Positions 657 through 40,589 of a stretch of DNA of 64,000 nucleotides are shown one piece after another. The notes under the pieces are model-generated. The model made no database searches. It had not been told where the DNA came from and saw only the letters and a program-made list of their open reading frames with translations. A program made the translations under genes and the position numbers. Each line of letters starts with the position of its first letter. Position 1 is the stretch's first letter. The DNA is from an uncultured virus (IMG/VR IMGVR_UViG_3300033553_000790) (lineage: Duplodnaviria > Heunggongvirae > Uroviricota > Caudoviricetes), in IMG/VR virus record IMGVR_UViG_3300033553_000790; one strand, 5' to 3'.

Positions 657-3600
657 CAGTTAAAAAAGATGATTTTGTACATTTACACGTTCACACAGAA
701 TACTCTATGCTTGATGGGCACTCGTTAATAAGTGATTTGGTTAAAGAAGTACATGAGCTTGGTCAAACTGCTGTTGGAATGTCTGATCACGGTAATATGC
801 ACGGCGTCTATGACCTTTTCAAAAAAGCTAAAGAATTAGATATCACGCCAATTGCCGGTATAGAAGCTTACATGACTCCTGGCTTACAGTCAAGAACCAC
901 CAGGGAACCCATATTTTTTGGTGAGGGCGGTCAGCAAGAAGAAGGCGGTAACGACGTTTCCGGTAAAGGGGCCTACACCCACTTAACACTTCTCGCTGAA
1001 AGCACTGAGGGGTTACACAACTTATTCGATTTAACTTCAGAATCTTACGCAACTGGTTTCTATAGGAAGCCAAGGATAGACACCGAGCTTTTGTCGGCAC
1101 ACTCTAAAGGCGTTATAGCTACAACTGGTTGCCCTTCAGGGGATTTTCAAACTTACCTTAGGTTAGGCCAAAAAGATAAAGCCCTTGAGTATGCCGCCAC
1201 GATGCGGGAAATTATGGGGAAAGAAAACTATTTCCTTGAGCTCATGGACCATGACATGAAGATAGACCTTGAGCGAAGAGTCAAAGAGGATATGTTCGAA
1301 ATAGGCAAAAAGCTGAACCTTCCTTTACTACTCACGAATGACCTTCATTATGTAAAGCAGGCTGACGCCTCTATGCACGAGGCTCTACTTGCCATACAGA
1401 CAGGCTCTAATATGAATGAGCCGTCTTATGAGAACGGCGGTAAAAGGTTCGCCTTCGAAGGTAACCAATATTATGTCAAGAGTGCAGCTGAAATGGCGAA
1501 ACTCTTCCCTGACCATCCGGAAGCAATGAAGAACACTCTTCTTATCGCTGAACGGGCCCAAGGCGTTAAGTTGGAACCTCGTGAAGATTTGAGACCTTCC
1601 GTTGAGATACCCGCTGGGTACACTCCTGACAGCTGGCTGGAGAAAGAAGCTAACGATGGCTTAATTAATCGTTACGGAAAAGAGAACCTCACTGATGAGC
1701 ATTTCTCTAGAATGAAAACAGAAATTGAAGTTATCACAAATAAGAACTATACTATGTATTTTTTGGTTGTGTCTGACTTCGTTAGATGGGCTAAGAAAAA
1801 CGGGGTTGTGGTCGGCCCTGGACGAGGAAGCGCCGGAGGTAGCTTATTATCTTTCTGTTTAGATATCACTGAGCTTGACCCATTGAGATATAATCTTCTT
1901 TTCGAGAGGTTCCTCAACCCGGAGAGGGATAGCCCGCCTGATATTGATATTGACTTTGATGATAAGCATAGGGAATTAGTTATCCAGTATGTCGTAGAAA
2001 AATATGGTTCTGATAAAGTTGCGATGGTTACTACATTCGGTAAGCTTGCTGCTAAAGCGGCACTTAAAGATGTGTTGCGTATATATGAACAGCCATTCGG
2101 CCTTGGGGACGCCTTATCACGCGCTTACCCTGAGCCTGTTATGGGGAAGAACTTGTCTTTGAAAGACGCCTACGATTCTAGCTCTGAACGGTATGAAGAG
2201 GCTCATGAGTTTAGGGAGCTAGTCAAGAAAGAAAACGTTCAACACTTAGTTGATATCGCCAGAGGTATAGAGGGAAGGACCAGGCAGACTGGTGTTCACG
2301 CCGCTGGGGTTATCATATCTGACAAACCAATTCACGAAGCCATACCACTTATGGTACGCCAGGCTGATGGTACTGTTATCACCCAGTTAGACTATCCTAC
2401 ATGTGAGACCCTCGGTCTACTAAAAGTTGACTTCCTGGGTCTTAAAAACTTAACTATCATAGAGAACTGCTTAAACCACATTAAGGACACACGTGGCGAG
2501 ACAGTTAAAGTTGATGACATTATTCACGGACCCATGGATGATCAGAAAACGTTTGATCTATTCAGGAATGGACAAACTCTAGGTATATTCCAAGTTGAGG
2601 GGTCATCTATGCGTGACCTTCTCAGAAGGATGAGACCAACAGAAATTGGTCATATCACAGCTGTTCTTGCTCTTTACCGACCAGGGCCAATGGCCGCGAA
2701 CGCACACAATGACTATGCTGACAGGAAGAACGGAATTAAAGAAACCCACCCTATTCACCCTGAGTTCGCTGAAAGTCTTGACGAGGTTCTGTCACCAACA
2801 TACCAAATTATTTGCTATCAAGAGCAGATAATGAAGATAGCTCAAGTAGTTGCAGGCTACTCCCTAGCAAGGGCTGACAATTTGCGTCGAGCTATGGGTA
2901 AGAAAAAGAAATCAGTCCTTGACGAGGAGTTCGAGCCTTTCTCCGCTGGGGCTAAAGCTAACGGATATTCCCCGGAAGCCATTAAAACACTATGGGATAT
3001 TCTAGTTCCATTCGCTGACTACGGCTTCAACCTGTCTCACGCAGCCGGATATGCTCTAATATCATACGTAACAGCATATCTCAAAGCTAACTACCCTGCT
3101 GAATACATGGCTTCACTGTTAACGTCCGTAAGCAAAGACAAAGATAAAACAGCTATTTATTTAAGAGAGTGCCAAGATATAGGCATTGAAGTTACCGCAC
3201 CTGACATTAACAACTCTAAAATGACTTATTCTCCAATTAAAGGAGCTAACAAGATATCTGCTGGCTTCTCCTCAATAAGAGGGGTTGGTGAACAGGCCGC
3301 TGAAGGTATAATTGAAGCTAGAACTGCGAATGGTGGAAGCTTCAAAGATCTTAACAACTTCCTTATTAGCGCTCCCGATAAAATAATATCTAAAAAGATC
3401 ATTGAAGGGTTAGCATACTCTGGAGGTTTTGATACCTTCAACGTTCCTCGCTCTGCGATAATCAATGAAGTTATTGAAAAGCTACCCGCTATCAAGAAAG
3501 CTAAAAAGAAAATAGACCAAGGCCAGGGCGACTTATTTGACCTTGCTGACGACCTTGAGACTGTGGACATACAGCTGGTGTCTATCCCAGACGATTACAA

Positions 3601-12404: not shown

Positions 12405-13016
12405 ATGAGACAAATCAACGGCACCGCACTAGTAATAGTTGACATACAGAACGACTTCTGCGAAGGGGGATCTCTCGCAATAGAGGGCGGAAACAGGGTA
12501 GCGGAAAGAGTTGCTGATTTCATTCGCAAAAACAGAACCGATTATCACCTAATTGTAAGTACTCAGGATTGGCATATAGATCCGGGTGAGCACTTTGAAA
12601 CATGGCCCGTACACTGTGAAGCAGACACTTCTGGGGCGGCAATTAAAAACGAAGTGATCGCCGCTCTGAAAGATACAGAAAATTCAGATGTACCTTACAT
12701 TCCTTTCTACAAAGGTCAGTACGACGATGGGTACTCCGGATTTGAAGGTAAAACACAACACAAGGGGAAACTAGATGACACGCTCAAGCGCTACGGCATC
12801 AAGAACCTTCACGTGGTTGGATTAGCAACCGACTTCTGCGTTAAAGCAACAGCAGTTGACGCTAACAAAGCCGGATACAACACGCTGGTCATAAGTGATT
12901 TAGTAGCTGGAGTTTCTAAAGATTCTGAAAGCATTGTCAAATCAGCAGGAATAAATTTGATTTCCGCCCAAGAAGCTGCTAGACTTATACCAAGTGAACT
13001 TTTAGTAGCAGAGTAG
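12405..13016 (+). CDS. pncA: nicotinamidase
   Basis: VDIQNDFCEGGSL, TQDWH, WPVHC, YSGFEG, GLATDFCV. Confidence 0.95.
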   Translation: MRQINGTALVIVDIQNDFCEGGSLAIEGGNRVAERVADFIRKNRTDYHLIVSTQDWHIDPGEHFETWPVHCEADTSGAAIKNEVIAALKDTENSDVPYIPFYKGQYDDGYSGFEGKTQHKGKLDDTLKRYGIKNLHVVGLATDFCVKATAVDANKAGYNTLVISDLVAGVSKDSESIVKSAGINLISAQEAARLIPSELLVAE

Positions 13017-13031
13017 AACAGGACAAAAGGT

Positions 13032-13775
13032 ATGGAAAGATTATACGACTCTCATGGTTACCCGGTAAATACGGTAGCTGTTGACGCAGTTCTTTTTGCT
13101 ATTGTTAACAGCAGCCTGTGTGTCTTAGTTGACCAGCGTGAACAAAAAGACGGGGAGGGGCTGTTCTCTATTCCTGGCAGGTTCTTAAAAATTGATTTCA
13201 CCCCAGAAGAGAGCATAGATGCCGAACTCATGGATATAGGAGTTAAAGATCGAATATCTTATTTCGAGCAGCTAGGGGTAGCTGGAAGCCCAAATAGAGA
13301 TCCCAGGAAAAGAATTGTATCTATAAACTATTTCGGCATTGTTCCTTTCAATAAAGACCGCACCTCTCAACCTAAAACGCAAACAGCAAAAGGGGTGTTC
13401 ACATGGGTAGAGGTAGATTCCCTGACAGAAGCCGAAATGTTTGCTGATCATTTTTCTATAATAACTAACGCTCGTGAACGCTTAGCTAACAAAATGGAAT
13501 ACTCCCTCATAGGAATAAACTTCTTAGACAGCGATTGCTTCACAGCTAATGACATCTACCAAGTATATTCTGTTGTTTGGGGAGAGAAGCTAGACCTCCC
13601 TAACTTCAGAAGAAAACTACTTAATAACGAGAATGTTCAGACGCTCGAAGGTAGAAAGTCGCTCAGTAAAATCCATAAGATAGCTAGAACATCTCAAGCT
13701 TATAGTATTAAAGGGGATGTAAGTAGCCTATCTGTAAAACCTGTTCTTCATCCGCCCATTCTAAGGAAAACTTAA
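13032..13775 (+). CDS. nrtR: NrtR-family Nudix-wHTH regulator of NAD metabolism
   Basis: degenerate Nudix box, EQL...RDPR, DH, LDLPNFRRKLL wHTH; follows pncA. Confidence 0.85.
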   Translation: MERLYDSHGYPVNTVAVDAVLFAIVNSSLCVLVDQREQKDGEGLFSIPGRFLKIDFTPEESIDAELMDIGVKDRISYFEQLGVAGSPNRDPRKRIVSINYFGIVPFNKDRTSQPKTQTAKGVFTWVEVDSLTEAEMFADHFSIITNARERLANKMEYSLIGINFLDSDCFTANDIYQVYSVVWGEKLDLPNFRRKLLNNENVQTLEGRKSLSKIHKIARTSQAYSIKGDVSSLSVKPVLHPPILRKT

Positions 13776-14786: not shown

Positions 14787-15055
14787 ACTGCTAACCTTCC
14801 TTTATATTTTATTTGGTAGTTGTTATTTACACAGTGCGCCATTGAGCTGATTATATAAGTATCGGCCAATAGACAATTCTTTCTAGAATCTTCTAAAAAT
14901 ATGAGAAAAACCTCCAACAGTTTCGATACGTTCCGATAGAATATATTGTAAGTGAAACCTCCGGAGTAAGAACGAGGCACCTAAACCAAGGTCGCTCAAG
15001 GCTTATTATAATGGAGGTTTTTTACACCCCCTGATCAAAATGTAAGGAAGATGAT

Positions 15056-28752: not shown

Positions 28753-29118
28753 ATGTATTTTTATCACTCTTCAAAAGACCCCACAACCGAAGCTGTTACC
28801 ATGACCCAAATGGATGTTGACTTACTGGTTCATTTACATGAATATTTTGTGCATGCTATACATATTTGTGACGACTTGCCAATTGACATAGAAGTGAAAA
28901 TGTCTTACCTTAAAGATGTTTTACCGGTCATTGATGAAGCTATAGCTACTGATGACTTCAGCGGTTTACATTGGCACATCTCAAAGGTGTTCCCCATAGA
29001 GGAGGCACGGAGCGAAGCTAAAAATCTAAAAGCTTACATAACGATGATAATTAAAAGCTACCCTGCTGATACAACTTTTATTTATACAGTGGATTTAGAT
29101 GATGAGGAGGAATTATAA
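28753..29118 (+). CDS. hypothetical protein, paralog of 28177-28542
   Basis: AAGGAG RBS then ATG 28753; high similarity to upstream copy. Confidence 0.7.
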   Translation: MYFYHSSKDPTTEAVTMTQMDVDLLVHLHEYFVHAIHICDDLPIDIEVKMSYLKDVLPVIDEAIATDDFSGLHWHISKVFPIEEARSEAKNLKAYITMIIKSYPADTTFIYTVDLDDEEEL

Positions 29119-29120
29119 GG

Positions 29121-29861
29121 ATGAGTAACTTCGAAAGCCGGTTCAAAGCAAAAGAATCCCAATACCGTAACGTCCTTGAAAGAAGAAGCTTATATGCCAT
29201 TCGTGTAGATGGTAGGGCTTTCAAGAATTACACATCTAAGTTTGATAAGCCTTTTGACACTAAATTCATGGAAGGGATGAACCAAACATGTGTTGCTTTA
29301 TGTAACGAAGTTGCTGGAGCTATATTAGGTTACGTTCAGTCCGATGAGATAAGTGTGATCTTCTCCGACCTCAGTGGTGAGAAAACAGAAATGTGGTTTG
29401 GCGGCAAACAAGATAAAATTATTTCCATAGCCGCTTCAACAGCTACAGGGGCTTTAATAAACGCCTTAGGGTCAAACCCCACTCCAATGTTCGACGCTAG
29501 AATACTCAAATTAGATAACGTTAACGAAGCGGAAGACTATTTAGCTTGGCGCTCCGGAGATGCTTTCAAGAACGCCATTTCAATGGCAGCTAACAGTCGA
29601 TATTCCAGCAAACAACTAGATGGGATGAACACACCCCAAAGAATAAGCCTCCTCGAAAAGGAACAACCGAAACTATATGCCAGCCTACCTGAAGGCTTCA
29701 AACACGGAAGGCTAGCTATGAAAGAAGACTACAAAGGTATTGTTGAGTTCTTCCATAAAGGAGATCAGGAAAAGAAAGTAATTGAAGTCACTAAAACCAG
29801 ATGGAAAGTAGATAGTTTCAAAGTAAACAACGCATCTTCAGTGTTACAAATGTTCAAATAA
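29121..29861 (+). CDS. Thg1-like protein (tRNA-His guanylyltransferase / 3'-5' polymerase)
   Basis: IRVDGRAF, KPFD, YVQSDEIS, FDAR, WR..DA..N. Confidence 0.92.
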   Translation: MSNFESRFKAKESQYRNVLERRSLYAIRVDGRAFKNYTSKFDKPFDTKFMEGMNQTCVALCNEVAGAILGYVQSDEISVIFSDLSGEKTEMWFGGKQDKIISIAASTATGALINALGSNPTPMFDARILKLDNVNEAEDYLAWRSGDAFKNAISMAANSRYSSKQLDGMNTPQRISLLEKEQPKLYASLPEGFKHGRLAMKEDYKGIVEFFHKGDQEKKVIEVTKTRWKVDSFKVNNASSVLQMFK

Positions 29862-29864
29862 AAT

Positions 29865-29900
29865 TTGCCACCCAAAAAAATGTATGCTATGATACCGATA
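29865..29900 (+). promoter_or_regulatory. sigma70-like promoter plus CCGATA element upstream of tRNA
   Basis: TTGCCA (29865-70), 17 nt spacer, TGn-TATGAT (29888-93); CCGATA 29895-900. Confidence 0.65.
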
Positions 29901-29910
29901 TAAACATTAA

Positions 29911-29982
29911 GCCCTTATAGCTCAACGGCAGAGCAGAACATTCTAAACGTTATGGTTGTGGGTTCAAATCCCACTGAGGGCA
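29911..29982 (+). tRNA. tRNA with CUA anticodon (amber suppressor type)
   Basis: acceptor GCCCTTA/TGAGGGC, D arm GCTC/GAGC, loop TT-CTA-AA (anticodon 29943-45), T arm GTGGG-TTCAAAT-CCCAC, discriminator A, no encoded CCA; anticodon stem has two mismatches. Confidence 0.85.
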
Positions 29983-30006
29983 CGCAGAAGAAAAGAAGGT
30001 AACAAC

Positions 30007-30138
30007 ATGGAAAGAGCAAACACTTTCACCTAGGTTCTAATTAACGAACCACTATTTTCTGCACCATTTTTAGGACATACTGACTTATTGTTAGTGTGTC
30101 CTTTTTTAGTACCCAAAAACAAACGAAAGGAAAAATAA
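30007..30138 (+). CDS. putative leader peptide with internal amber codon (MERANTFT*VLINEP...KEK)
   Basis: AAGG RBS, ATG 30007, TAG 30031-33, open to TAA 30136-38 which overlaps the next ATG. Confidence 0.6.
30072..30107 (+). terminator. intrinsic terminator / attenuator inside the leader readthrough frame
   Basis: 13-bp stem AGGACATACTGAC / GTTAGTGTGTCCT (with G-U pairs), loop TTATT, T-run 30102-30107. Confidence 0.8.
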
Positions 30139-30509
30139 TGGAATCTAAAGAAGCACAGGAATTAGTTAAAAAGTATGAGGAATTCGCAGAGTTCATAGAG
30201 AACAGAGCATACGTGGTGTTCGATGCGGTATACCCTGATCGGCATTCAGATTACTTATCCTTCTTAGCTGTTGAAGGTAAAACAATCGTAATGGAAGAAA
30301 GTTACAGGGGAGAAACCGAGGGGCAGCGCTATTTCCCCATCGACACGTTCTTCATGAGCGATGAGCAGCTAAGTAAAAAGAAGGAGAGTAATTTAGCTGA
30401 TGTAGCAAAGAGGAAACTGGAAACTAAAGCTGCAGCAGAAAAGCAAAAAGAAACCAGGGAGCGGCAGTTACTAGAAGAGTTACAAAAGAAATACAACCCA
30501 ACCAACTAA
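30138..30509 (+). CDS. hypothetical protein, paralog of 30524-30913
   Basis: ATG 30138 after AAGGA; identical C-terminus RQLLEELQKKYNPTN. Confidence 0.7.
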   Translation: MESKEAQELVKKYEEFAEFIENRAYVVFDAVYPDRHSDYLSFLAVEGKTIVMEESYRGETEGQRYFPIDTFFMSDEQLSKKKESNLADVAKRKLETKAAAEKQKETRERQLLEELQKKYNPTN

Positions 30510-30523
30510 ACGAAGGAAAGAAA

Positions 30524-30913
30524 ATGAAACTATCGGAAGCACAAAAAGCCGTTGCACGGTATGAGGAGTTAACTGAGTTGATCGAAAGTAAAGCTCATAT
30601 GGTTTTCGATTCGCTTTACCCTAACCAACATCACAATTACTTCGAATTCGAATCCGTAGAGAATAACCAAGTCACACTAACGGAGAGATACAGGGATGAT
30701 CTCGAATATCATCACTTCCCTTTAGAGCTATTCTTCAGAAGTGATGAGCAACTCAAACAAGACAAGGAGGGCACCTTGGAAGCAATGAAACAAGCTAAGC
30801 TTAAAGCTAAAAAACTTGCTGAAGAAGCTAAAGCAAAAGCCGCGCAGCAAAAAGAAATCGAAGAGCGTCAGCTTTTAGAAGAGTTACAAAAGAAATACAA
30901 CCCAACCAACTAA
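30524..30913 (+). CDS. hypothetical protein, paralog of 30138-30509
   Basis: EAQ..V..YEE...VFD..YP...FP...FF.SDEQL shared. Confidence 0.7.
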   Translation: MKLSEAQKAVARYEELTELIESKAHMVFDSLYPNQHHNYFEFESVENNQVTLTERYRDDLEYHHFPLELFFRSDEQLKQDKEGTLEAMKQAKLKAKKLAEEAKAKAAQQKEIEERQLLEELQKKYNPTN

Positions 30914-30929
30914 ACAAAGGAAAAAGAAA

Positions 30930-31922
30930 ATGACCTAGGTACAAACAAACAACAAATTATATGTAATCACCCACAACCAACTATCAGCAGGGGCTCAGAC
31001 CCTCCAAACGGCGCACGCTGTTGCTGATTGGATTGTGGCTAACCCAACAGAGTGTAAAAAATGGAAAGAAGATTCCAACTCCATTATTGCTTTAGCTACA
31101 AAAACAGAAGAAGAACTGTACGGCCTGTTAAAGAAAATAGATGAACAAGGCCACAGTTACACTATTTTTCGTGAACCTGACTTCGGGAATGCCATAACAG
31201 CTATCGCTGTGACCCCGGCTGGTAATAACAAGAAGCTATTCGCTAATCTCCCTTTAGCTGGTAAGATAACCGACTTAGAATATGAAAGTAGGAAACTAGC
31301 TGGCGAGCGAAAGAAACGAAAAGCTAGTTTCGATATGTTCAACACCGACCAAGCTGAAAGTCAGAACATAATGGAGCACGGAGAATCTGTCTACCGGCAT
31401 TACACTCAAATCAAAAAGCATATGGAAGGTAAAATAGATTTAAGTGACAACCCTTTCTGGATAATACCCGAATGGTTAAACGAAAATTTTTACAACATAT
31501 TGGAGAACTTACCGTCAGATTATGTCATGGAAAGATACTTGACACTCCATGATTGTGGTAAACCAGCCGTACAAATAACCGTGGATGGGAAGAAAAGATT
31601 CCCAGGTCACGCAGAAGCGTCAGCTGATATGTTCAGAACAGTTTTCTCTCATGATATGACATCTGAAAGCGACCAACTGATAGCACACTTTATTGAGTAT
31701 GACATGGATGTTCATATGCTAAAAGCAGATGATGTGGAGGAATTTGCTTTATCTGAGTATGCTATGACACAATTTATTGTTGCCTTATCGGAAATAATGG
31801 CTAATGCTGAAATGTTCGGAGGAACAGAATCTGTCAACTTCAAAATAAAATATAAAACCTTGAACCAGCGAGCTAAGAAAATGTTCAGAATTTTAGAAGA
31901 GAAGGTGCTGATAAAAGTTTAA
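30930..31922 (+). CDS. PTH2-like peptidyl-tRNA hydrolase fused to HD domain; amber codon at position 3
   Basis: ATG ACC TAG GTA... is in frame with the 31035 ORF and restores KLYVIT...GAQTLQTAHAVA; FREPDFGNAITAIA; HD part EHG...LHDCGK...GHAEASA. Confidence 0.8.
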
Positions 31923-31928
31923 TTAAAT

Positions 31929-32261
31929 TCAGTATGCCCTAACTACATCTAAATCAGCAGGGAAACCCTGGGAAGTGGCGAGTATTTTTCTACCAACCGT
32001 CATTTTCCAGGGAAGATCCTGCTCAATGAGGAAGCGTTTGGTGTCTAAATAGTTGACAACTTTAGAATTCAGCATCCTCAAAGTATCATACGTCCCAGGA
32101 CATATGTCGGTATCAACCACTTCATTTAGAGTAAGTAGAGTGCCGTCTGAGCCTTGAGAAGAACCAAAATTAGCCTGTTTGAATAGCTCTTCAACTTTTC
32201 CCTTGTTCTCTACAAACAAGGTAACACTATCGAAAGAAGATACTAGCTGTATTGCGTACAT
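31929..32261 (-). CDS. hypothetical protein
   Basis: AGGAG RBS. Confidence 0.55.
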   Translation of the reverse strand: MYAIQLVSSFDSVTLFVENKGKVEELFKQANFGSSQGSDGTLLTLNEVVDTDICPGTYDTLRMLNSKVVNYLDTKRFLIEQDLPWKMTVGRKILATSQGFPADLDVVRAY

Positions 32262-32402
32262 GGGGGCTCCTATTTATTGTTGTAATGTTCAGATATTCTC
32301 TAACGTATCTTAAATAGCCCATGCCCATAATCTTGCTTTTACATAAAAAGTATGATACTATTTACAATAATTAAAATATACACAAAGGACCAGGAAACAT
32401 AT

Positions 32403-33242
32403 ATGACCAGCTTAAGTAACAAAAATAATTTACCAGATAACTTCATGCTTGTTAGGCATGGGCTGTCTGAAGCTAACATATTTCAGAAAGGCCAGTTCCC
32501 TAACGGAGCGAAACTTGAGGTAGTTCCTGAGGAATTCGGTACGCGCCATGACAGCCTGATGCGTTTATCTCAACACGGAACTGAGCAAGCCGAAGCTGCC
32601 GGAGTTTGGCTGAAAAACTGGCTCGAAGCTAACAGTATGGCTAACTTCGAAAGGTTCTATGTTTCCCCGCACCTTAGAACAAAAGAAACAGCGGCCCACT
32701 TAGGGTTAGGTGGGGAATGGCGAGTGGATGACCGCCTCCGTGAACGCGACTGGGGTTTGCTAGCTCCGCTCAGTAAAGAAGTCCAAGATACTGACCACAA
32801 AGCTGTAATGGCTTTGAAGAAACAAAACGAATGGTACTGGCAGCCGCCGTCAGGAGAATCTTTAGCCACAGGCGTAAGAACACGGTTCACACAGCTCATG
32901 GATTCTTTATACAGGAAGCCCGCCGCTGGCAGTATCATTGCCGTGACCCACGGTGAGCTAATCCGCACAGCACAATTCGTTCTAGAGCGTATGACCCCTC
33001 AACAGTGGCTTAAAATGGACAGTAGCGGCGATTACAGAATAAAGAACTGTATGATACTCCATTACACGCGAGTTAACCCGGTAACAGGTGAAAAATCAGA
33101 CCGATACACCCACAGGCGCGCTATCTGCCCGTGGAATTCAGACTTCTCATGGAATGGTGAACAATGGAGTGAAATTGAATATAAGCTCTACAGTGACAAG
33201 GAGTTACTTAACAGTTTAGAGAAATATCCTAGATTACTTTAA
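32403..33242 (+). CDS. histidine phosphatase (phosphoglycerate mutase family)
   Basis: LVRHGLSEAN, SPHLRT, LRERDWG, GES, VTHGE. Confidence 0.88.
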   Translation: MTSLSNKNNLPDNFMLVRHGLSEANIFQKGQFPNGAKLEVVPEEFGTRHDSLMRLSQHGTEQAEAAGVWLKNWLEANSMANFERFYVSPHLRTKETAAHLGLGGEWRVDDRLRERDWGLLAPLSKEVQDTDHKAVMALKKQNEWYWQPPSGESLATGVRTRFTQLMDSLYRKPAAGSIIAVTHGELIRTAQFVLERMTPQQWLKMDSSGDYRIKNCMILHYTRVNPVTGEKSDRYTHRRAICPWNSDFSWNGEQWSEIEYKLYSDKELLNSLEKYPRLL

Positions 33243-35381
33243 GCCGGTTTCTTTAAGCCAGCGTACTTTCCCAGCATCCCAGATGCGAGGAATTCCGTTA
33301 AGCGCAGCTAACTCCTTCTCTGTCATCCCTTCTTCATAATTCAAATTAGGGTCATTCCTAAACCTTTTAATTCTGTAACCAAACTTATGGTTACGCTTAC
33401 CTTCACTTATGTACATGTAATCAGGCGCTAAATTCTCATCTAAAGTGAAACCATTATTTTCGTATAGTCCACCATCACTCACAGTGTTGTCAGAGAAAGT
33501 AACCCATTTCTTTATTCCGGGGATGTCTCTTTCAGCTTGTTTCATAAGTTTAGTGAAACCACCCGGAATACCAACACTAGTCGCATAACGCTCTATAAGC
33601 CATTTACCTTCATCACCCGTGCTACTGGCGGCTTTGATAACTAGGACAGCGACAAGCCCCTTCTCTGGGCTGGTAAGACCATAATATTTACTACCAGCAG
33701 CGGAGCCCTGAACGTGGTTAAGGTTCAAGAAATCTGAAGCTGTAGCATAATCCACTTTAACAGCATTAAGTTTCCTCGCCCCTATCCTTTCCGAACCGGA
33801 GGCCTTAAGTTTATGTAGCAACGAGCTCTTAATGAACTCTCCATTAGCTGACCAGTCATCCTCCCATATCTGGATTAACTGTATACCGAGATCCTTACAG
33901 ACTTTATATTTATTGTAATGATACCACTTGTCTTTACCCATAGCTTCGCTATGCCAATACAAACCGTTGAACTCTACAGCTAAATTCTTCTCAGGCAAAT
34001 GAATATCCAACTCACCTTTAATGACATCCCGAACTGACTGTAAAATCTCAGTGTCAGGCAAAGCCTCTTTCAGATAAAGGAAAAGGTCCTGCTCCGCTTT
34101 GGAAATGCGATTAGAGCATTTAGGGCATCCGTGTTCAGCAAAAACGCGACTGTCTACATCAGTCCTCCATGTATGGTTCTTATTTTTACTACAAACCCAA
34201 TAGAACCTATCTTTAGAGCTAACACCTATGCTATGTGGATCTACATCATTTTTAACATAATCCCATTCTTTTAGAAGCCCTGGGAACCTTGTGGCGAAAT
34301 CGTTCACCCCGTTATCAACATAATACCCAGCACAGGTCGGGCATTTACCTAAAGTGCTGACCGGAGATTCCCATTTATGACCTTTCTCGCATAACCAGAA
34401 AACGTCTTTCCTCATACCTCTCGTATAGTTCTCCGGACCTTGCTCATTCTTGGTGTAATCCCAGCGGTCTTTTATTTCAGGGTTAGTTGTCAGGATGTCA
34501 TTAAACCCTTCCAAAACAACCCTGTTCCGGCAGACAGGGCATCTTTCCTGTGAGCCTGTTTTCCTCTCACGCGTAACATCACTAACCATAGCTGACCAAG
34601 AATGACCTGAAGCGCAGTGCCAATTGAGGGTAACACCGCTTTTAACTGTAATTTTATCTAAGTCAACATCCGGGTTGTCTGTAGTTTTTAGCATCTCGAA
34701 GAGATGTGGGAGCCCCGAAGATAACAACTTACCTGTATTGTAAACTCTTGCTGAGCCGGGTTTCCGACCAGCGCAAATTGGGCATCCTTGATTATGGGCA
34801 CTGCGGTTATTGACTGAAGCAACCCACCCATGCCCGCAAGCTCCAACCCAAATAACTTTTTTCACCGAACCATAAGTAACCTCTTTAGGGGTTAACTCAT
34901 TTTTGTCAGACCATTCAGCAGCAAGCTCAGGATGAGTTGTTGCCAAATCATTAAAACCACGCAGAATAACACGGTTCGCGCAGACATCACACTTACGCCC
35001 CTTCACACGCGCTTTAACAGCGGCTTCCCATTCATGACCTAACTTGCAAACCCACAGCACTTCTTTCCCACTTATAGGAGTAACATCTGAAGCAGCCAGT
35101 TCATTATTCTTGGACCACTCAGCTGCTAATTCAGGGTGAGTAGTAGCTAAATCATTAAACCCAACAATTAACCTCCTACCCGAACACACAGGGCAAAGAT
35201 ATGTTTTACGAACCCTATCCCTCGCTGCTGAACTCCAAGTATGACCAACAGGACATAACCAATATATTTTCTTAGCTGAATTCAACGATATCTGACCAGG
35301 AGTTAAAGAGCCATTCAAAGCTGGGTGCCACTCTGAAAGCACCCCACCAGGGGCATCCTCATAAGTTAAGTCAGTAGACAT
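33234..35381 (-). CDS. free-standing homing-endonuclease-like protein with tandem zinc-ribbon repeats
   Basis: repeated W.C..GH.W.....R....CP.C units; ELDIHLPEKNLAVEFNGLYWHS nuclease core; WEDDW. Confidence 0.75.
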   Translation of the reverse strand: MSTDLTYEDAPGGVLSEWHPALNGSLTPGQISLNSAKKIYWLCPVGHTWSSAARDRVRKTYLCPVCSGRRLIVGFNDLATTHPELAAEWSKNNELAASDVTPISGKEVLWVCKLGHEWEAAVKARVKGRKCDVCANRVILRGFNDLATTHPELAAEWSDKNELTPKEVTYGSVKKVIWVGACGHGWVASVNNRSAHNQGCPICAGRKPGSARVYNTGKLLSSGLPHLFEMLKTTDNPDVDLDKITVKSGVTLNWHCASGHSWSAMVSDVTRERKTGSQERCPVCRNRVVLEGFNDILTTNPEIKDRWDYTKNEQGPENYTRGMRKDVFWLCEKGHKWESPVSTLGKCPTCAGYYVDNGVNDFATRFPGLLKEWDYVKNDVDPHSIGVSSKDRFYWVCSKNKNHTWRTDVDSRVFAEHGCPKCSNRISKAEQDLFLYLKEALPDTEILQSVRDVIKGELDIHLPEKNLAVEFNGLYWHSEAMGKDKWYHYNKYKVCKDLGIQLIQIWEDDWSANGEFIKSSLLHKLKASGSERIGARKLNAVKVDYATASDFLNLNHVQGSAAGSKYYGLTSPEKGLVAVLVIKAASSTGDEGKWLIERYATSVGIPGGFTKLMKQAERDIPGIKKWVTFSDNTVSDGGLYENNGFTLDENLAPDYMYISEGKRNHKFGYRIKRFRNDPNLNYEEGMTEKELAALNGIPRIWDAGKVRWLKETGLK

Positions 35382-39773: not shown

Positions 39774-40589
39774 ATGAGAGTAAAATTATATGCGGATTTA
39801 TCCCAAATTGTTAATAAGGGGAAAAGCAAAGGTGAAGCTTTCATAGAGGTACCGGTACCTGATAACATGAGGGTCAAACCATCAAAAGGTAGCGCCGTTA
39901 CTGTCTGGGATGATGATTACGATGTGAGTTACCTAGGTGAAGTTCTTGATGTAAAAATATCCGCAGAAGGTCAACCCGTTGCTGTTATTATGTTGGATTT
40001 AGCTACTTCAGGCACTGTTGATAGTTCCCAACCAGTTAAACGCAAAAAAAATAACATTGCTGGAATATTCGGCGTGTTCGTTGGGCTTTTAGCTAATGGC
40101 CTCTTCTGGTTCAATCCGTTAGGTTATATTTCTACAATATTCTCATCTGTCGCAAATAATGTTACAGGCGAAAGTATTTTTTTTGTAAATTTCTTATTAG
40201 ACAACGCCGCAGAGCCCACTATCCCTTACGTTGCTGACATCACTAACCTGCTTATTTTATTGGTGTTTCCTCTATTAGGTGCGGCTTTGATGCGTAGACA
40301 TTGGAGTAACAACGGCAGCACTTCTTTAGGGTATCATTTTGGCGGAGTGCTCAACACGCTTGCTGCGGGTATAGCAGGCTTCGGATTCTATGTAGCTTCA
40401 ATAACTTACCTTGTTATAAAAGGTATGAACGTAGTAAATTCGCTTGGTAGCTCACCGGCGACCGGCGACGCATCAAGCACATCCGATTCTTCCCACCTGC
40501 TACCTGTCCTCACTGTTGGGTTGGGCCTGTTCATCATAATTCCCGCTTTCTTAAATTTTGTTATCATGTATAAAGTAAATAAAAAATAA
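39774..40589 (+). CDS. multi-pass membrane protein
   Basis: about four hydrophobic segments. Confidence 0.6.
   Translation: MRVKLYADLSQIVNKGKSKGEAFIEVPVPDNMRVKPSKGSAVTVWDDDYDVSYLGEVLDVKISAEGQPVAVIMLDLATSGTVDSSQPVKRKKNNIAGIFGVFVGLLANGLFWFNPLGYISTIFSSVANNVTGESIFFVNFLLDNAAEPTIPYVADITNLLILLVFPLLGAALMRRHWSNNGSTSLGYHFGGVLNTLAAGIAGFGFYVASITYLVIKGMNVVNSLGSSPATGDASSTSDSSHLLPVLTVGLGLFIIIPAFLNFVIMYKVNKK

Follow-up and report, generated by a model that had tools for sequence, protein, structure and literature searches.

We describe a conserved amber-gated gene and its suppressor tRNA in a 64,000-nucleotide stretch of DNA from an uncultured tailed phage of the Caudoviricetes (IMG/VR record IMGVR_UViG_3300033553_000790), which we call the window. 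The gene encodes a protein with a PTH2 domain, resembling peptidyl-tRNA hydrolases, followed by an HD domain, and its third codon is TAG. Upstream of it, on the same strand, lies a gene for a tRNA with anticodon CUA, a predicted amber suppressor. We consider it probable, on comparative evidence from sequences, that the two form a lock-and-key unit in which the phage tRNA(CUA) gates translation of the PTH2-HD protein, a predicted tRNA 3'-end enzyme, through the UAG at codon 3. Put more generally, amber suppression most likely gates the translation of a putative tRNA 3'-end enzyme pair.

The gate is conserved far beyond the window. We compared 102 loci (87 distinct), made up of 80 from IMG/VR, 14 from JGI metagenomes, 7 from cultured phages and the window itself. 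An earlier note on this DNA, made from the letters alone, had suggested looking among homologs for a ribosome-binding site followed by ATG-x-TAG and for a nearby CUA tRNA; both proved to be strongly kept. In at least 80 of the 87 distinct loci, a PTH2 or HD open reading frame (ORF) opens with M-x(0-11)-TAG in frame, usually with the TAG as codon 3. The loci that share this start-proximal TAG have 30-48% protein identity. With TAG translated as X, hidden Markov models (HMMs) run over all the loci detected one or more gated PTH2 or HD ORFs in 75 distinct loci. They classed 101 of 129 ORFs as gated, and TAG is codon 3, with a leader of M plus one residue, in 47 of the 101. Five of the 12 loci in which the HMMs detected no gate (L011, L018/19, L027, L030 and L080) carry one on PTH2-like ORFs that the HMMs missed.

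For 62 clusters of the IMG/VR loci, we also scored which in-frame stop comes first on going upstream from the conserved domain. In 44 of the 62 it was TAG, with an ATG standing 1-8 codons 5' of it, and in 5 it was TAG without a near ATG (two of these have 11-12-residue leaders); it was TGA in 9 and TAA in 4. TAG with a near ATG was found in 32 of 1078 other ORFs of the same loci (3%; Fisher p = 6e-44), a baseline that is overestimated because the control set still held separate PTH2 ORFs with real gates. The base 3' of the TAG was A in 27 cases, G in 11, C in 6 and T in none (n=44), and the codon after the TAG was variable (ATH, GTN, AAY, CTN, ACN, GGC, AAA). Shine-Dalgarno (SD)-like sites precede the ATG in many relatives.

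The gate tracks the domains, not the locus. It is found on PTH2-HD fusions, on HD-PTH2 fusions (XacN1, L051, L055) and on each ORF when the two domains are split (both ORFs are gated in L022 and L025, for example), and a scan of the related loci for other gated ORFs revealed no other recurrent family. Each of the seven cultured phages carries one gate or more. The opening is MK-TAG in Tenacibaculum pT24 and in Xanthomonas XacN1, MT-TAG on PTH2 in Acinetobacter ME3, ML-TAG on PTH2 in Salmonella Arash, ML-TAG on PTH2 and MKS-TAG on HD in Ralstonia RsoM2USA, and ATG-TAG-GTG in Mycobacteriophage IkeLoa, a Bixzunavirus phage in which a tRNA(cta) lies 250 nt 3' of the gated PTH gene. Cronobacter GAP32 has MAQ-TAG on PTH2 and an internal TAG at codon 47 of its HD gene, which is annotated as two or three ORFs (the GenBank split is GAP32_398, 398A, 399). 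A TAG inside the PTH2 or HD ORF, instead of or besides the start-proximal one, occurs in L082 (GAP32; 2961-3525), L011, L014, L072, L028 and L095.

Protein searches extended the family. A word-indexed search returned 12 proteins, several of which begin inside the PTH2 domain; the closest relatives, P0003 (72% identity) and P0004 (79%), are known here from protein alone. When 1.84 billion cluster representatives were all scanned with phmmer, 1425 matched at E <= 1e-3, with 455 at E <= 1e-10, and many of these proteins also have their N-terminus inside the PTH2 domain. Gene callers leave such genes truncated or split.

The second body of evidence concerns the link to the tRNA. ARAGORN called a CUA tRNA within 4 kb in 41 of the 80 IMG/VR loci, in several as the sole tRNA. 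Among the 14 JGI loci, a CUA tRNA lies 40-230 nt 5' of the gene in six (L089, L091, L093, L094, L095, L098) and elsewhere within 3 kb in two more. The closest relatives (40-48% identity) share one order: a promoter-like site, tRNA(CUA), a small hairpin, an SD site and ATG-ACN-TAG-GTN. In L089, L091, L093 and L095, the promoter-like sites read TTGNNN-17/18-TGnTAnnnT and stand 10-27 nt 5' of the CUA tRNA. The small hairpin, which has no U-run, lies 2-30 nt 3' of the tRNA in L088, L089, L091, L092 and L095 and is missing from the window; it may help to process or stabilise the transcript that tRNA and gene share.

The CUA tRNA is the sole tRNA in the 64-kb window. It matches Rfam RF00005 with 61.9 bits (gathering score 29), and it has a discriminator A, a short variable arm and a weak anticodon stem; CCA is not encoded. 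We take the short variable arm and the discriminator A to be compatible with Lys- or Gln-type identity. Set against the 302 tRNAs of the related loci, the window tRNA resembles other CUA tRNAs most, above other isoacceptors.

A pattern search found odd CUA tRNA-like elements, missed by ARAGORN at its defaults, beside the gene in seven more loci (L004, L005, L006, L008, L009, L058, L076). Those of AT-rich relatives (L004 2905-2975; L005/L006/L058 3687-3755; L009/L076 3846-3935) have a normal acceptor and T-arm and a reduced or expanded D-arm region. The L009 element has a perfect 7-bp acceptor plus ACCA, with a 9-nt insert before the D-arm. Rfam aligns one of the odd elements, and only to the ends of the tmRNA model. 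A pattern match in L026 was set aside, as it was not confirmed by ARAGORN.

The gated protein can be assigned by fold and by profile. Its AlphaFold2 model has a pLDDT of 96.2 and a pTM of 0.92. Pfam PTH2 (PF01981) matches residues 17-99, covering profile positions 12-102 of 115, with 28.1 bits against a cut-off of 23, and the fold is that of Pth2 (Foldseek to 3erj_A, E 5e-5, TMt 0.75; 1wn2_A, Z 12.6, root-mean-square deviation 2.2 over 106 residues). The NCBIfam Pth2 equivalogs were not reached (20.9 bits vs 126 and 18.2 vs 82). The N-terminal domain is PTH2-like, not an equivalog. The catalytic residues of archaeal Pth2 are presumably Lys, Asp and Thr; in the alignment the Asp column reads E of rEpD, and the Thr of TA.A is kept. 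The phage subfamily shares its fold with archaeal and eukaryotic Pth2 (1wn2, 3erj, 2zv3), but it is divergent and occurs together with an HD domain, either by fusion or as a separate partner. PHROG 14850 starts at residue 38 of the PTH2-HD protein.

The HD domain fell below the Pfam cut-off (PF01966, 16.7 bits vs 22). Its His and Asp ligands (H150, H207, D208, H227, D258, H262) are at least 90% conserved among 58 sequences, and the fold aligns over 125-160 residues with PPX/GppA, PhnZ, PgpH, Cas3-HD and HD-GYP at Z 7-9. The best match is the body domain of a class II tRNA nucleotidyltransferase, the A. aeolicus CC-adding enzyme 3wfo (Z 12.4 over 186 residues; the next HD proteins reach Z ~9). 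The profile match to 3wfo/3wfp/3wfq/3wfr has E 4.3-4.6e-5, with the motif HDxGKP...G..F..H in common. The HD domain of the E. coli CCA enzyme has phosphohydrolase activity. The alignment with 3wfo takes in chain residues 219-448 only, against model residues 55-324. The phage protein itself is not a class II tRNA nucleotidyltransferase (3WFO-3WFS): head and neck domains are absent, and its N-terminal half is PTH2. Without a head domain it would be unable to add CCA, and the activity of its HD domain is a prediction from sequence and model. The available part of PMC4810234 names entry 3wfo for the A. aeolicus enzyme. Taken together, both domains appear to point to the 3' end of tRNA, with activities that are predicted.

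Our model begins with one promoter, from which the UAG-reading tRNA and the enzyme gene would be transcribed together. Ribosomes would start at ATG 30930 and would make the protein only if tRNA(CUA) outcompetes release factor 1 (RF1) at codon 3. If RF1 wins, a dipeptide would be released at almost no cost. No enzyme would appear unless the suppressor has been expressed, processed and charged, and enzyme output would scale with this; the unit would act as a coherent feed-forward AND gate. The comparison of loci shows the gate and its link to the tRNA, and it supports translation that depends on the suppressor; we infer read-through, the identity of the amino acid put in, the substrates of the enzyme and the purpose of the coupling. 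The enzyme may recycle tRNAs that carry a peptide, an N-acyl group or a phosphate as a block at the 3' end. The likeliest source of such tRNAs would be the peptidyl-tRNA and stalled-ribosome by-products of amber read-through. The logic of the gate fits three uses, namely clean-up after read-through, governing of the suppressor, and a timing or leak-proofing device. The earlier note had supposed that the module is switched on under anti-phage attack on tRNAs or ribosomes. We found no support for this; induction by tRNA damage does not fit the model because the enzyme would be made only while the suppressor works.

Several observations weigh against our model. Seven of the 87 distinct loci are ungated (L010, L026, L064, L066/67, L078, L079, L097). 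The record of L097 is truncated at the end of its contig, and those of L078 and L079 are fragmentary; L010, L026 and L064 have ordinary starts. In L064, the one complete ungated record, the pattern search found no CUA tRNA, which agrees with the link between gate and tRNA. ARAGORN called no CUA tRNA within 4 kb in 39 of the 80 IMG/VR loci, although most of these records are incomplete. L088 and L092 keep the TAG, but ARAGORN does not call the tRNA in the usual place CUA. Some HD ORFs (ME3, L018, L030) have no TAG despite a near CUA tRNA, although the adjoining PTH2 ORF is gated, and HD-only genes have a conserved Met 5-12 codons past the TAG, so some of their product could come by re-initiation. 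The internal TAG columns are variable and indicate no amino acid for insertion at TAG. As to the enzyme, the lysine column in the GKGK of archaeal Pth2 is not kept and reads s-a-g-y-q in the phage subfamily; because this catalytic column is not conserved, peptidyl-tRNA hydrolase activity is not assured. Strong suppression would be costly to the phage because the 16 ordinary TAG stops of the window have no nearby back-up (the next stop lies at a median of 14.5 codons, vs 9.5 for TAA). Finally, searches found no RNA run containing the locus, the one RNA run of the same study included, and the purpose of coupling gate to tRNA is a matter of inference.

The elements of the unit in the window are collected in the table. 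Every element listed by the earlier note was found again, on the plus strand, and two coordinates needed small corrections.

Table. Elements at the gated PTH2-HD locus, in window coordinates
Element	Position	Strand	Remarks
Thg1-like tRNA-His guanylyltransferase gene (context)	29121..29861	+	Pfam Thg1 1.5e-24; PHROG 4717 3.5e-58
Sigma-70-like promoter, extended -10	29865..29893	+	TTGCCA-17 nt-TG-n-TATGAT, 10/12 matches; consensus match only
tRNA, anticodon CUA (predicted amber suppressor)	29911..29982 (Rfam), 29911-29983 (ARAGORN)	+	
Mini-ORF MERANTFT	30007..30033	+	ATG 30007, seven codons, ACC-TAG (TAG 30031-30033), then GTT
Intrinsic-terminator-like hairpin	30072-30102, with T6 to 30108	+	13 pairs, loop of 5, then T6
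Paralog 1, 123 aa	30138..30509	+	function not assigned by family searches
Paralog 2, 129 aa	30524..30913	+	C-terminal 16 residues same as paralog 1
Shine-Dalgarno-like AAGGA	30917..30921	+	8 nt 5' of ATG 30930
PTH2-HD gene, 330 codons	30930..31922	+	ATG 30930, ACC, TAG 30936-30938, GTA; stop 31920-31922

Between the tRNA and the gated gene, the window has a leader mini-ORF, a hairpin and two paralogous genes. Both paralog genes are preceded by the same kind of SD-like site as the gated gene, and their products end in the same 16 residues (ERQLLEELQKKYNPTN). Neither has a family match in Pfam, PHROG, NCBIfam or PADLOC. A sequence search placed viral hypothetical proteins as the nearest Atlas clusters of paralog 2, which is not a recurrent neighbour in the related loci.

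The leader raises the possibility of a two-stage switch, in which suppression of the leader UAG carries the ribosome over the hairpin and RNA polymerase proceeds into the paralogs and the enzyme gene. We consider this reading less likely than not, and with the same reserve its corollary that transcription and translation are both gated by the tRNA. The geometry fits a ribosome-dependent attenuator. The UAG lies 39 nt 5' of a hairpin that folds with -19.7 kcal/mol (z -5.8; none of 200 shuffles was as good), and the frame that is open if the TAG is read through spans the hairpin and stops at a TAA (30136-30138) that overlaps the ATG of the next gene. One relative, L093 (48% protein identity), has its own version: an ATG-TTA-TAG leader 15 nt past the tRNA, whose read-through frame enters a terminator of -23.6 kcal/mol with U6, and then the gated gene. 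In the trp and pyrBI leaders, the position of the ribosome decides whether a terminator hairpin forms. The window and L093 likewise have a leader ORF before an intrinsic terminator, but here the signal would be amber suppression rather than the supply of an amino acid or nucleotide, and the arrangement is weakly conserved.

Weak conservation counts against a two-stage switch. A leader with TAG and terminator was found in only one of about ten close relatives (L093). In L088, L089, L091, L092, L094, L095 and L098, the gene comes directly after the tRNA and small hairpin, with no leader or terminator. The earlier view that UAG read-through is needed twice is supported for the enzyme gene, where the gate is conserved; for the leader, which has an analogue in a single close relative, gating is a candidate function. 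In addition, both leaders resemble the 5' end of the gene itself. The leader of the window ends in ACT TTC ACC TAG, like the start of the L094 gene (ACA TTC ACC TAG), and the L093 leader TAGAACATCAAC resembles its gene's 5' end TAGAACAACAAC. To judge from these likenesses, the window leader is probably a second copy of the 5' part of the enzyme gene. An HNH endonuclease gene stands at the same spot in L090, and the leader may therefore be a by-product of insertion. The insert in L090 (2140-2841, minus strand) is a 233-aa ORF with the HNH motif DHINENPLDNRRENLRFLCPNCH between the CUA tRNA and the gated gene, flanked by the similar TAGGTT sequences ACACCTAGGTT and ATGACTTAGGTT. The spot just past the amber codon seems to be a hot spot for insertion in L090, the window and L093.

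The context ACC TAG GT, which the earlier note saw as shared by the two amber codons, is present at both sites, but the common 8-mer is not significant alone. ACCTAGGT occurs three times in the window (1.05 expected; 9 of 100 shuffles reach three), and the third copy, at 39931, is out of frame. Mini-ORFs ending in TAG lie within 80 nt past the tRNA for 23 of 55 CUA tRNAs and 59 of 255 others, an uninformative count made with no SD filter.

The enzyme could instead be a negative-feedback governor that targets the suppressor tRNA, either as such or when charged or bearing a peptide. Stronger suppression would then yield more enzyme, which would damp suppression and keep read-through within what the phage's own TAG-terminated genes can tolerate. 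We regard this as rather unlikely. In its favour, the gate reports suppressor activity directly, both enzyme domains point at the tRNA 3' end, unchecked suppression would be harmful where 16 of 80 ORFs end in TAG without back-up stops, and no other suppressor target was found within the window. What speaks against a governor is that Pth2 enzymes act on N-blocked aminoacyl-tRNA and not on free aminoacyl-tRNA, and that there is no sign of specificity for the CUA tRNA. Moreover, a loop that controls only itself does not explain why the suppressor is kept.

A third explanation is that ATG-x-TAG is a tiny upstream ORF, with restart downstream or at a non-canonical start, and that the CUA tRNA serves another purpose. 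The bar minigenes of lambda are two-codon minigenes, IkeLoa has a GTG directly after ATG-TAG, and the conserved Met of the HD-only genes would offer a restart. This explanation is very unlikely. In the PTH2-first genes there is no canonical start before the domain. The first such start past the TAG lies 32 codons on in the window (GTG 31035, residue 36, within the PTH2 domain), 62 in L012 and 121 in L005. Because these starts are so far past the TAG, re-initiation cannot yield a whole PTH2 domain. Nor is an alternative start conserved, since the codon after the TAG varies. A tiny upstream ORF also needs no frame, no preference for TAG over TAA or TGA and no open codons after the stop, and it leaves the internal TAG of GAP32 and the link to the CUA tRNA unexplained.

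The use of TAG elsewhere in the window bears on the last alternative. TAG is an ordinary stop there, as the earlier note had said: 16 of 80 greedy ORFs end in it. Coding cover is 0.887 with code 11; it becomes 0.900 if TAG is taken as sense, and 0.880 if TGA is (the control). In a scan of all TAGs followed by at least 80 open codons, TAG 30936 was the sole one in the window with a start 2 codons upstream, a 327-codon ORF behind it and no canonical start for 32 codons. A second candidate gate, TTG-GTT-TAG-GTG at 14983 (minus strand), was rejected: no SD precedes it, and ATG 14785 is the real start. Contigs from two DNA runs of one study, possibly the source sample, are identical to the stretch, with zero differences, which counts against a read error. 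That the phage reads TAG as sense throughout (code 15), or that the TAG stems from faulty sequencing or marks a pseudogene, is scarcely credible. Many phages are known to have a CUA tRNA together with in-frame TAGs, according to the available part of 10.1101/2021.08.26.457843, but neither the window nor the related loci show the many in-frame TAGs and the low coding density under code 11 of a TAG-recoded phage. Cover is barely altered, only one such TAG occurs in 64 kb, and the same start-proximal TAG recurs across loci with 30-48% protein identity, in 80 or more of the 87 distinct ones.

Two other places in the window have TAG-terminated genes in frame with a neighbour. The ORF at 12405-13016 (PHROG 19305), which has base A after its TAG, is in frame with 13032-13775; read-through would fuse 203 and 247 residues, and the arrangement could be chance (one frame in three). 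At 63209-62310 (minus strand), three successive small genes end in TAG, the first two mutually in frame.

The recurrent neighbours of the module are Thg1-like genes (9 loci), IF3 (8 loci), lone PTH2, an HD_4 protein, aminoacyl-tRNA synthetases and tmRNA genes. The phage IF3 (Pfam IF3_N, IF3_C; for example L032 7411-8049, and seven other loci) recurs, like tmRNA genes, within 4 kb of the module. The loci listed for IF3 or tmRNA near the module besides L032 are L025, L045, L046, L062, L065, L068 and L069, and these genes lie beside runs of tRNA-Thr genes and a tRNA-Arg(CCT). The window itself is part of a contig of ~229.6 kb with phage-like genes for ribonucleotide reductase, the Thg1-like enzyme and homing-endonuclease-like proteins. 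At 33234-35381 (minus strand), between a histidine-phosphatase gene and the gene for the ribonucleotide reductase small subunit, it encodes a protein of 715 aa that has six DUF4379 repeats (treble-clef zinc fingers) and a C-terminal part like homing/HNH endonucleases (PHROG 559, 3339). A megablast of 29100-32300 against cultured phages gave no match, and PADLOC placed neither the enzyme nor the paralogs nor the adjacent minus-strand ORF in a family. In both DNA runs, the Logan assembly graphs break at the paralog repeats (30138-30913).

The unit can be compared with three known ways of using an in-frame stop. In prfB, the gene for release factor 2, an early in-frame UGA is the basis of autoregulation, and escape is by +1 frameshifting. 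There, as in our model, an early in-frame stop makes expression hinge on a contest at the stop codon. The difference is that prfB senses its own product, whereas here escape would be through a dedicated suppressor tRNA and the product would be a tRNA-end enzyme. A synthetic leak dampener (PMC7969014, in its available part) places a suppressor tRNA and an amber target under the same control, as a coherent feed-forward AND gate that removes leak; that device is engineered, whereas the phage unit is natural and widespread and has both parts on one transcript. In recoded phages (crAss-like, Lak and others), TAG is read as Gln (code 15), and a phage CUA tRNA likewise opens in-frame TAGs; the authors propose that recoding times translation. 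As far as the accessible part of that work goes (10.1101/2021.08.26.457843), these phages have many TAGs in many late, structural and lysis genes and have lost TAG as a stop. By contrast, the phage studied here has the standard code and a single start-proximal TAG, confined to one enzyme-family pair beside the tRNA.

Targets of phage amber suppressors have been sought before. The available text of the XacN1 paper states that the targets of its two CUA suppressors were not identifiable and that in-silico read-through of 18 annotated TAG stops gave nothing, and the abstract of the phage Summit paper likewise reports that the suppressor target was not found. It seems that the target was missed because the TAG sits upstream of the annotated start. 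As in the earlier note, which knew of no described system with this architecture, we found none with a start-proximal amber codon in PTH2 or HD genes in the literature, supplementary files aside. The amber-gated PTH2-HD gene with its suppressor tRNA is a conserved design common to many large phages, and it seems to be undescribed.

More speculatively, suppressor tRNAs in standard-code phages may perhaps exist largely to work a UAG lock on tRNA-end enzymes, one that would read out the contest between tRNA(CUA) and RF1 as a viral counterpart of the prfB sensor. In some phages, an attenuator that depends on suppression would be stacked on top. The whole would then be a small, ancient module, ranging from mycobacteriophages to 500-kb phages, and a possible seed of whole-genome TAG recoding. 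The finding of the gate corrects how hundreds of phage genes are annotated. The gate, if real, is a natural amber-suppression circuit of a single gene. It would offer a way into the question of how stop-codon read-through is tolerated or put to use by phages, and it may be a first step towards genome-wide recoding.

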